A stretch of 64,000 nt of DNA, taken from NCBI RefSeq assembly GCF_044324785.1, contig NZ_CP172127.1. One strand, given 5' to 3'. The DNA is from Escherichia coli. GTDB lineage: Bacteria > Pseudomonadota > Gammaproteobacteria > Enterobacterales > Enterobacteriaceae. Below the pieces are notes generated by a model. That model saw only the letters and a list, made by a program, of their open reading frames with translations. It was not told the origin of the DNA and searched no databases. Numbering within the stretch: the first letter of the stretch is position 1; every line of letters starts with the position of its first letter. A program made the position numbers and the translations under genes. This document shows positions 25,645 through 26,853 of the stretch, in pieces.

Positions 25645-26775
25645 TTTATAGTCCTTAATTTATAAAACTCACAGGAAGAGGAAATTATGTAAATACTGAG
25701 AGAACATAAACGCCGTAGCACGGCATTAATAAACGAAGTAAACCAGCAGCACAGACACCCTGATAAAACTGTTTTGTATTACCGCATCGCTGTAACGAGG
25801 TAATACTTCAGAATTCAGTGAGGCTCTCTTAAACAGAGGACCAGTAAGAATTACAATGGTAAAAACACACCTCATAGAATTGAGTTTAAGGAAGCACCAT
25901 TCACTCAACCTGACATTCACAAAAGTCAGTACCAGGTGGCCTCAGGTAACATCGCTATTAATATTATCCTGCCATTAAGTAAAAACAGAAACTCTGTGAG
26001 GAAGTCTCACCAATATTTGACCAGTAGCATAAAGAATAACGATATGAGAGATACGCCCACACCAGAGATGATTACCCCATACAAAAAGATAATATTTATT
26101 AATACCACCGCACCTCAATAGACTAATAACACACTAATAGCGTTTTGGTACACACTTAACACTAACTATGCACCAGACACATACTCAGGATTAACATTCC
26201 CAACATTTATGGTACTCTCAAAGAGTATAATTCACCACACAGGTAAACTCTCACACCAGTAGTATGGAGATAATGCTGTACACATACTTACAGAGTAAAG
26301 TGTACAGTTAGCATACAGTGGCGAGCAGACATTACAACATAAAGACATAAGATAGCATAATAAGAACATAACAAAACTCCCACTAATAATACTAATTAAC
26401 CTTAATTCTTTTTTGAACAGGAAATCAACATAGCTCCAGACCTCTTCAGGTCATACACTTTTGTATTGGATGTTCAATGTGTACTTCTGCACAAACAAAA
26501 AAATAAAACCCGCAAAATAAAATATCAGCCCCAAAAATACAGCGTGAAACACCACGTTATGGATATGTTTTCATATCACCAGAAGCATATTTCACACATA
26601 CAATACAGAAACAATTCATCATATAATCAGGGTTACTGTTCACTCCTCTCGGTTATCCGCGAGACGATAAAACATGACACTAATCACAAAAACGAGAGAT
26701 AGTATTTGCGAAATATAAACAACATAAAAATCAATGCGTTGCGATTTTTTATTTTTTCAGACATGCATGCCCCCT

Positions 26776-26811
26776 CTGCTATTGTTGCTAGCCGGCTAGC
26801 AACAATAGCAG
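26776..26811. repeat. 36-bp perfect palindrome CTGCTATTGTTGCTAGCCGGCTAGCAACAATAGCAG
   Basis: Read directly; 18-bp arms with no spacer; about 45 bp downstream of the stop of the 607-aa ORF; not followed by a T-run on either strand. Confidence 0.85.
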
Positions 26812-26853
26812 GGATATACAAACATCGGATGCCAAAAACACGTTCCGATAATA

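Follow-up and report, generated by a model that had tools for sequence, protein, structure and literature searches.

A conserved 35-nt element upstream of an HUH-type Gp2 gene in a gene-free tract of an Escherichia coli island, a candidate rolling-circle origin

Pathogenicity and defence islands of this kind have been proposed to be helper-dependent, self-replicating satellites, in proposals that named only the proteins (PMC12458937; bioRxiv 2024.08.29.610337). The Gp2-type proteins of such islands have been called HUH rolling-circle initiators and belong to the core of AlpA-bearing satellite-like islands (PMC12458937), and a Gp2-like gene is likewise a core gene of the IntY/AlpA islands (bioRxiv 2024.08.29.610337). 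The PICMI satellites of Vibrionaceae combine an integrase, AlpA and DUF3987 with "large non-coding regions", replicate by a rolling-circle mechanism and are packaged as concatemers, and their non-coding regions were set aside by the authors as non-functional (PMC10803314). Here we describe a 64,000-nt stretch of Escherichia coli DNA (assembly GCF_044324785.1, contig NZ_CP172127.1; hereafter the window), in which a 1.2-kb gene-free tract at positions 25645-26853 precedes a gene for a Gp2 protein and contains a deeply conserved 35-nt element. Neither of the two studies of AlpA-bearing islands mentions this upstream tract or its element, and a text search for the motif returned nothing relevant.

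The best explanation of the tract is that it forms the non-coding control region of the island's replication module, which comprises int, an AlpA-like gene, a DUF3987 helicase, Gp2 and an AEP primase. The initial annotation had described it as poor in open reading frames (ORFs), A/C-rich and G-poor on the plus strand, and placed upstream, on the coding strand, of a YfjJ-like and a PrimPol-type gene; all of this is borne out, with the primase here reduced to a remnant. No ORF overlapping the tract on either strand encodes more than 78 amino acids, and the gene-free tract is a real observation. Its plus strand consists of A 0.385, C 0.215, G 0.151 and T 0.248, and the skew runs along the tract (AT skew about +0.24, GC skew about -0.2 to -0.27). 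The A+C content of 0.600 compares with a mean of 0.512 (standard deviation 0.028) and a maximum of 0.601 over all 1209-nt intervals of the 64 kb, which places the tract about three standard deviations over the mean and essentially at the top of 1.2-kb intervals. Both flanking genes, a 607-aa ORF upstream and the 187-aa Gp2/YfjJ-like ORF downstream, lie on the minus strand, so that the sense strand of the AT-rich tract is the T/G-rich one (T 38.5%, G 21.5%, A 24.8%, C 15.1%). The tract is 100% identical to that of E. coli SMS-3-5, occurs complete in 155 of 5426 complete E. coli genomes and carries no annotation in any of the 1502 matching E. coli records, where PGAP calls neither a gene nor a pseudogene. 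Deep conservation proved to be confined to the element of about 35 nt.

This element, AGAATTAAGGTTAATTAGTATTATTAGTGGGAGTT (26375-26409, minus strand), is the proposed cis site (origin or nick region) of the Gp2 HUH protein and lies with about 440 nt of the tract upstream and about 730 nt downstream of it in the sense orientation. Its consensus is aATAATTAAGGTTAATTA(G/A)TATTATT..G(G/A)AGT, laid out in the sense direction as a 6-7-bp all-A·T dyad (AATTAA-GG-TTAATT), then GTATTATT, then GTGGGAGT. The little variation that it shows falls on the R of TTA[R]TATT and on a stretch that reads TTAAGG, TTTAGG or TTGGG. The inverted repeat itself occupies 26394-26407 on the minus strand and, consisting of A·T pairs throughout, forms no stable hairpin as single-stranded DNA (ssDNA). 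A 21-nt invariant core, TTAAGGTTAATTAGTATTATT (26385-26405, minus strand), includes the nonanucleotide-like TAGTATTAT; it is unchanged across the 16 members of the window-like group (class A below) and is present as a single copy in the 64-kb window even with three mismatches allowed, where none is expected by chance. E. coli, E. albertii, Citrobacter, Erwinia and Edaphovirga share the core without a single change, and Budvicia has the same block as well, although the flanks of the loci that keep it are unalignable and the DNA identity between their Gp2 genes is no more than 64-72%. Over 58 distinct contexts the information content is about 2 bits per position across about 25 nt and about 0 in the flanks. 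A 36-nt query covering the element matched at 2129 places in 1838 of the 5426 complete E. coli genomes (with at least 80% of its length in 1613) and was never annotated. In these alignments the element is much more conserved than Gp2 or anything around it, and the remainder of the tract is a fast-changing spacer.

The element is also tied to Gp2 by position. Every close Gp2 homologue has the element upstream in the same orientation. A scan with the 21-mer returned 62 loci (61 from metagenomes and one from a viral contig), in 41 of which a Gp2 homologue follows on the same strand 146-1100 nt downstream; of the remaining loci, some belong to the same families but sit on contigs that are cut off too soon, and the others are chance matches in unrelated AT-rich sequence. 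For a held-out test, a position weight matrix built from the close instances was run on both strands of 11 loci with remote Gp2 proteins (27-43% identity), drawn from gamma-, beta- and epsilon-proteobacteria: Escherichia sp. E1V33, Yersinia enterocolitica, Y. intermedia, Citrobacter braakii, Limnobaculum, Rouxiella, an IncI plasmid, Acidovorax, Rhodoferax, Sulfurovum and a Sulfurospirillaceae genome. In 10 of these loci the top site in the full 4.5-12.5-kb sequence preceded Gp2 on the sense strand, at a distance of 86-179 nt in eight and of about 1 kb in two, and only the Rhodoferax locus (L014) departed from this; the chance of the top site falling in such a 200-nt interval on one strand is about 1-2% per locus. 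The upstream regions of K-12 yfjJ and yagK are without the element, and their proteins are too divergent for a useful comparison, with only the HUH strand aligning. Taken together, the position, orientation and conservation of the element make it very probable that it is some functional cis site coupled to Gp2.

The element seems to be partnered with Gp2 and not with AlpA: it stays the same beside two clearly different types of AlpA, several distant loci yielded no AlpA, and int has no further copy of the dyad nearby. In short-spacer islands (L019, L093, L095, L096 and L098) the first AlpA type (…TGLTDKWFYKLI…) is encoded immediately after Gp2, and the second, similar to K-12 AlpA, is located elsewhere, beside DUF3987 (the window, L021 and K-12). 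Further sequence blocks were noted near the element. Three distant loci of beta- and epsilon-proteobacteria (L011, L012 and L013) share a second block, TAACT(T/C)TGTAT(A/G)T, about 95 nt upstream of the element, and an invariant block of similar sequence, ATCTTTT(C/T)TGTATG, lies downstream of the element in class A (about 26070-26105 in the window).

The Gp2/YfjJ-like gene ("inovirus-type Gp2", 25081-25644, minus strand, with its ATG at 25644 preceded by an AAGGA ribosome-binding site) encodes a protein that looks like an HUH initiator in its predicted fold and motifs. In an alignment of 18 homologues, both histidines of the HUH motif (H87-I-H89 in "GLHIHF") are invariant, the YxxK motif (Y157-L-A-K160) has an invariant K160 and a Y157 kept in at least 90%, and a C-terminal, AT-hook-like RGRPR (181-185) is invariant. 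Pfam gives weak matches to REP_ORF2-G2P and YagK_YfjJ_C. The AlphaFold (AF2) model has a pLDDT of 89.8, and its fold matches, besides generic ferredoxin-like folds, are nuclease domains of rolling-circle initiators: parvovirus NS1, AAV Rep, SIRV1 ORF119, microvirus replication initiators, CRESS Rep and "Inovirus Gp2", the last in a viral library with E = 4.5e-8 and a TM score of 0.66. A profile search of PDB sequences gave no match. This large family comprises 2483 clusters at 50% identity, and most relatives in a library of 1.8 billion proteins are 340-400 aa long with the HUH domain in the C-terminal half; long forms such as the Acinetobacter and Allochromatium plasmid copies (L090 and L092) have no conserved element upstream. 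One database protein, P0095 (245 aa), combines a Pfam HHA domain (PF05321) with an alignment to Gp2 that covers 56% of the query.

From these features we propose, with a probability of about 0.5, that the element is the nick and binding region of Gp2 and a candidate rolling-circle origin of the excised island. After excision, Gp2 would bind the 35-nt element, its invariant RGRPR tail being suited to the AATT-rich inverted repeat, and would nick the sense strand in or beside the TA(G/A)TATTAT core. Rolling-circle copying would then proceed towards Gp2 and the primase gene, with the DUF3987 helicase unwinding the DNA and the AEP primase, where present, or the host primase priming the displaced strand. 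The short repeats directly after the element, which differ from island to island, may serve as specificity sites, and the remaining ~1.1 kb would be a plastic spacer or an untranslated leader. The presence of island-specific repeats after a conserved core resembles replicons that share a nick site and draw their specificity from binding repeats, and the helicase, primase and excisionase neighbours make a context that supports a replication module.

Several observations weigh against this proposal. The exact nick site and the nicked strand are guesses. Folding of eight element variants as ssDNA gave minimum free energies of 0 to -4 kcal/mol in seven of the eight, not better than shuffled sequences, and revealed no hairpin common to the variants; neither a stem-loop nor a cruciform that would expose a nick site was seen in the element, only the 6-7-bp all-A·T dyad, and in this the element is unlike CRESS, pT181 and pMV158-type origins, in which a stable hairpin presents the core. 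Tandem Repeats Finder (score >= 30) found no tandem repeats in the window, and the short TTATGTC-like repeats described below are borderline there. At K-12 yagK, a remote paralogue, the related AGGTATTATATAAT overlaps a promoter-like TTTAGA-17-TATAAT (read by eye), and the usual position of the element, 80-180 nt upstream of Gp2 and co-oriented with it, would suit a promoter or operator equally well. The best Gp2 homologue among INPHARED phages has 24% identity (an Acinetobacter phage record), and no small plasmid or autonomous phage using a Gp2 homologue as Rep was found, so that no replicon has yet been linked to replication by this family. The replication module of the window island itself is probably defective, its primase gene having been destroyed by insertion sequence (IS) elements.

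The element could instead be the promoter or operator of the Gp2 operon, bound by AlpA, Gp2 or a host factor, with the 730 nt downstream as an untranslated leader, a reading that we regard as possible but rather unlikely. It would account for the constant co-orientation of the element and its typical distance of 80-180 nt from the gene start, for the TATTAT and the dyad as a possible operator, for the proximity of AlpA genes to Gp2 in most gammaproteobacterial loci, and for the operon-like arrangement of class-B islands, in which hha, on the same strand, separates the element from Gp2; a C-poor sense strand would presumably also withstand Rho on a long leader. Against it, TATTAT is conserved but no -35 hexamer is, at any spacing (alignment by eye), and a simple sigma-70 promoter scan calls no site at the element, where a promoter that depends on an activator may still lie. 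Near-identity over about 25 nt across gamma-, beta- and epsilon-proteobacteria goes beyond usual promoter conservation, and one unchanged element accompanies two AlpA types and lacks a second copy near int, which AlpA regulates in CP4-57. Because of unrelated insertions, the element is 86 to 1160 nt away from Gp2, with three unrelated spacer classes of 0.16-1.16 kb, and this independence of distance fits a cis site better than a fixed promoter. The two roles are nevertheless compatible, because origins often overlap rep promoters, and a promoter at this site need not exclude an origin. A mimic of a T7/SP6-type phage RNA polymerase promoter was also considered and set aside: the ends of the element resemble AATTA..GG and TATAGAAG / GGGAG, but their spacing is about 9 nt too long, and a search of the phage collection gave neither a significant nor a multi-copy match.

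The sequence between element and Gp2 falls into unrelated forms. Class A, to which the window belongs, has spacers of 590-810 nt with a sense T+G content of 0.59-0.61 in all 16 members and an AEP primase gene after Gp2. Class B, similar to class A in the element only, has spacers of about 0.94-1.17 kb and carries between the element and Gp2 a gene of the Hha family (H-NS co-regulators; NF008191, 105.8 bits), which is intact in five loci and broken in at least 10 others (loci of this class include L029, at about 4452-4823, L043, L060, L033 and L067). Class C is short (158-365 nt) and has no significant repeats. Class D is the copy on the IncI plasmid, with the element about 1 kb from Gp2 within a 1.6-kb unannotated gap that is T/C-rich on the sense strand. 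The element of Limnobaculum is about 0.95 kb from Gp2. Most of the distant relatives keep just 80-180 nt between element and Gp2, and the long spacer is therefore not needed by the whole family.

Repeats directly after the element are clearest in class B, where they measure 8-13 nt and include six to seven copies with a 13-nt period in L032 and tandem CTGTAATT in L039 (p <= 0.02). They occupy the same place as a T-rich zone of the window (26267-26371, minus strand), directly downstream of the element, that contains five copies of TTATGTC-like short repeats (one mismatch), with p = 0.07 in the window and p < 0.01 in a near relative (L062). A general repeat search of the window returned only weak families of two to three copies, and no multi-copy iterons flanking an AT-rich segment were seen. 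The suggestion in the initial annotation of a replication origin or iteron region has therefore stood in part: an element of about 35 nt is tied to an HUH-type protein, but tandem arrays are absent and the short repeats are borderline.

The recurrence of TACAG had also been pointed out. Its sense form, CTGTA, occurs in the window on the minus strand at 26314-26318, 26303-26307, 26289-26293, 26604-26608 and 26538-26542, that is, five times compared with 2.5 expected in a 1056-nt segment that starts 300 nt ahead of the element and runs to the start of Gp2 (p = 0.09). In related long spacers the excess is clearly significant: in all long classes (A, B and D) CTGTA is three- to fourfold enriched in a strand-specific manner, with 5-11 copies compared with about 2.5 and mostly p <= 0.01. 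The enrichment is common to long spacers that do not align with one another (including L026, L032, L039 and L089) and is absent from short ones. The idea that CTGTA is a recognition site of the AEP primase was rejected, as the primase follows Gp2 only in class A and the motif is enriched in A, B and D. The excess of G over C and T over A on the sense strand matches cytosine deamination of a displaced strand, and a non-template strand would give the same skew.

A far more speculative possibility, and the least likely of those considered, is that Gp2, the AEP primase and the tract form a device that makes non-coding ssDNA and does not serve genome replication. Gp2 would nick the element, and strand displacement would release the T/G-rich, poorly self-pairing sense strand with its CTGTA sites; the product might act as a decoy, a signal or a source of primers in phage infection, as a DNA-templated analogue of retron or DRT products. 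Such a device would explain why unrelated, long, strand-asymmetric spacers recur downstream of the same element. The NCBI name of the AEP primase-polymerase refers to a "TOTE conflict system".

Could the tract beyond a short promoter simply be functionless debris of decayed genes and insertions in a degenerating island? The spacers are indeed plastic, with deletions of 150-250 nt in L003, L005 and L070, a (GGTATA)n microsatellite in L048 (alignment columns 411-452) and the unrelated classes described above, and the middle of the spacer appears from these alignments to be under little constraint. The class-B hha gene at the same position is often broken, the window island is already damaged by IS elements, and in PICMI satellites, too, small ORFs and pseudogenes occur within large non-coding regions (PMC10803314). 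Debris would, however, hardly have kept the T+G content of the sense strand constant in all 16 class-A members or have gained a strand-specific CTGTA enrichment common to unrelated long spacers, and the 35-nt element is conserved far too well. None of the ten longest ORFs of the tract matches NCBIfam or PHROGs, and these searches showed no protein similarity for any tract ORF; derivation of the class-A spacer from a decayed hha gene was rejected, with E >= 0.24 in tblastn searches with the class-B Hha gene. We consider debris an improbable account of the tract. The more specific suggestion of a decayed gene fares no better, as ORFs of the window are intact in at most 9 of the 16 window-like tracts, most of them in just one to five, the indels among relatives are of arbitrary, frame-breaking lengths that are not multiples of three, and PGAP annotates no pseudogene.

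The initial annotation had further raised the possibility of a long structured non-coding RNA, to which a regulatory 5′ leader such as an attenuator or a riboswitch-like structure, formed by the whole tract or its proximal 350 nt, may be added. The proximal leader of Gp2 (25645-25996, minus strand, about 350 nt) is about 84-90% conserved in about 1300 further E. coli genomes and is unannotated everywhere. It contains a 31-nt imperfect palindrome, GTATTACC...GGTAATAC (25776-25806, minus strand), which has 14-bp perfect arms in the class-A consensus, and a terminator-like hairpin, GCCGT-GCT-ACGGC with a T-rich tail (25712-25724, minus strand), which precedes the ATG of Gp2 by about 65 nt. Variants of the hairpin include two compensatory ones (GCAGT..ACTGC and GCTGT..ACAGC) and several with one-sided mismatches, and either structure could be an operator or an attenuator. 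The sense strand of the leader has somewhat more terminator-like hairpins than expected (4 compared with 1.1), which would suit a structured leader as well as transcription from a promoter at the element. For the 736-nt stretch from element to Gp2, the z score of RNA folding against 20 shuffles is -2.35 on the sense strand, but the antisense strand lies nearly as far below its shuffles (-1.79). RNAalifold on 16 leaders gave a covariation term of just -1.44 kcal/mol, with 4 of 82 pairs compensatory, and covariance models of Rfam found no family in the tract at E <= 1 (20-32 kb searched). The leader is conserved about as well as the Gp2 gene and its similarity stops outside E. coli-type islands, so that shared ancestry suffices as an explanation, and the large deletions and microsatellite expansion in relatives' spacers argue further against a conserved structure. 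With no conserved ORF, no family match and weak folding and covariation, neither a decayed gene nor a conserved structured RNA is supported, and an RNA function of the tract is, like debris, improbable.

Mobilisation offers another role for the element, either as an oriT nicked by Gp2 as a relaxase or as a pac- or cos-like signal with CTGTA as terminase-binding repeats. Relaxases are among the HUH enzymes, such islands have been proposed to be phage-transduced satellites (PMC12458937; bioRxiv 2024.08.29.610337), and CTGTA is strand-specific and confined to long spacers of E. coli-type elements. However, no coupling protein or type IV secretion system gene lies nearby, and Gp2 is without the three-histidine motif of relaxases, the alignment showing the HUH pair only. 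A common packaging signal is unlikely for an element that occurs in very different hosts with different helper phages. Mobilisation is thus very unlikely.

The tract sits in an integrative island adjoining clpA/cspD. Upstream of it in the sense orientation lies the 607-aa hypothetical gene (26854-28677, minus strand), which has no Pfam, NCBIfam or PHROG match; Citrobacter has the same order of gene, gap and Gp2, with a gene of 627 aa. Beyond it follow an AlpA-like helix-turn-helix protein or excisionase (28778-29026, plus strand), the DUF3987 helicase (29042-30607, plus strand) and a tyrosine integrase (30831-32039, minus strand). On the other side of Gp2 is the remnant of the AEP (PrimPol-type) primase gene (24038-24926, minus strand), frameshifted and cut by IS66/ISL3; ISL3 and IS66-family insertions within 21717-24926 truncate the gene, which in intact class-A islands starts 158 nt past Gp2. 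The islands of Nissle 1917, O157:H7 and 08_3418 show, in this order, YfjI (DUF3987), 0.8-1.0 kb without annotation, Gp2 and the AEP primase. Intact islands occur in E2348/69, Nissle and O157, and O157-type islands such as L004 keep the AEP primase gene whole.

A perfect 36-bp palindrome, CTGCTATTGTTGCTAGCC/GGCTAGCAACAATAGCAG (26776-26811), lies 42 nt past the stop codon of the 607-aa gene. Every window-type locus has this palindrome, which is separate from the conserved Gp2 element and is not a canonical terminator, because neither side has a T-run; a related sequence, TAGCAACAGTAGCAG, follows yfjI on the IncI plasmid (L089). Two sub-threshold Rfam matches were seen elsewhere in the window. 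A JUMPstart-like match at 20391-20427 (minus strand; 25.6 bits, E = 0.04, under the gathering score) lies upstream of an O-antigen ABC-transporter/glycosyltransferase cluster, the expected place for such an element. A hairpin at 30625-30712 (minus strand), between the DUF3987 and integrase genes, scored 34 bits for mir-1002 compared with a gathering score of 85 and is almost certainly a chance match to the terminator hairpin of convergent genes.

Many E. coli islands have the Gp2/YfjJ-type gene and its upstream region in their conserved backbone, among them the O157 island beside ycdU and those of Nissle 1917 and EPEC E2348/69. The element is a candidate origin for a poorly studied Rep family for which no origin has been described so far, and a 35-nt candidate cis site together with a small HUH protein makes the proposal of self-replicating islands directly testable. 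It would also give annotators a marker of the replication module. The finding is a plausible and well-delimited prediction of mechanism.

Among known systems, the origins of CRESS-DNA, gemini-, nano- and circoviruses and related plasmids are similar in having a short, conserved, AT-rich site that precedes the rep gene by about 100-200 nt in the same orientation, an initiator with HUH and YxxK motifs and, as in the island relatives, variable iterons beside a conserved core. The invariant TA(G/A)TATTAT differs by one base from the circovirus and geminivirus nonanucleotides, TAGTATTAC / TAATATTAC, a resemblance that serves as a lead only. Unlike those origins, the element is part of a large integrated island and lies up to 1.1 kb from rep, and Gp2 has no fused SF3 helicase, the island encoding a separate DUF3987 helicase and an AEP primase. 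In the Ff filamentous phages, an intergenic region of several hundred bases upstream of gene II holds the plus-strand nick site. The island resembles them in having a non-coding region directly upstream of the initiator gene, and its protein family is labelled "inovirus Gp2", but the Ff gpII has 410 aa and belongs to a different Pfam family, and neither a hairpin-rich packaging signal nor a minus-strand origin is evident in the tract. SaPI/PICI and P4 (ori/crr) origins are of the theta type, with a primase-helicase binding multiple iterons that flank an AT-rich region. They share with the window an AT-rich non-coding sequence next to primase and helicase genes, an integrative satellite lifestyle and an AlpA-type regulator, but the window is without tandem or multi-copy iterons and the conserved partner of its element is an HUH protein. 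The window island has the int, AlpA-like and DUF3987 genes of the PICMIs, but is located beside clpA/cspD and not fis, the insertion site that defines PICMIs, and PICMIs have not been reported with a Gp2/HUH protein. The satellite-like AlpA/HUH-Rep defence islands (PMC12458937) and the IntY/AlpA islands (bioRxiv 2024.08.29.610337) are mobile elements of the same kind as the window island and carry the same Gp2/HUH gene as a core function.

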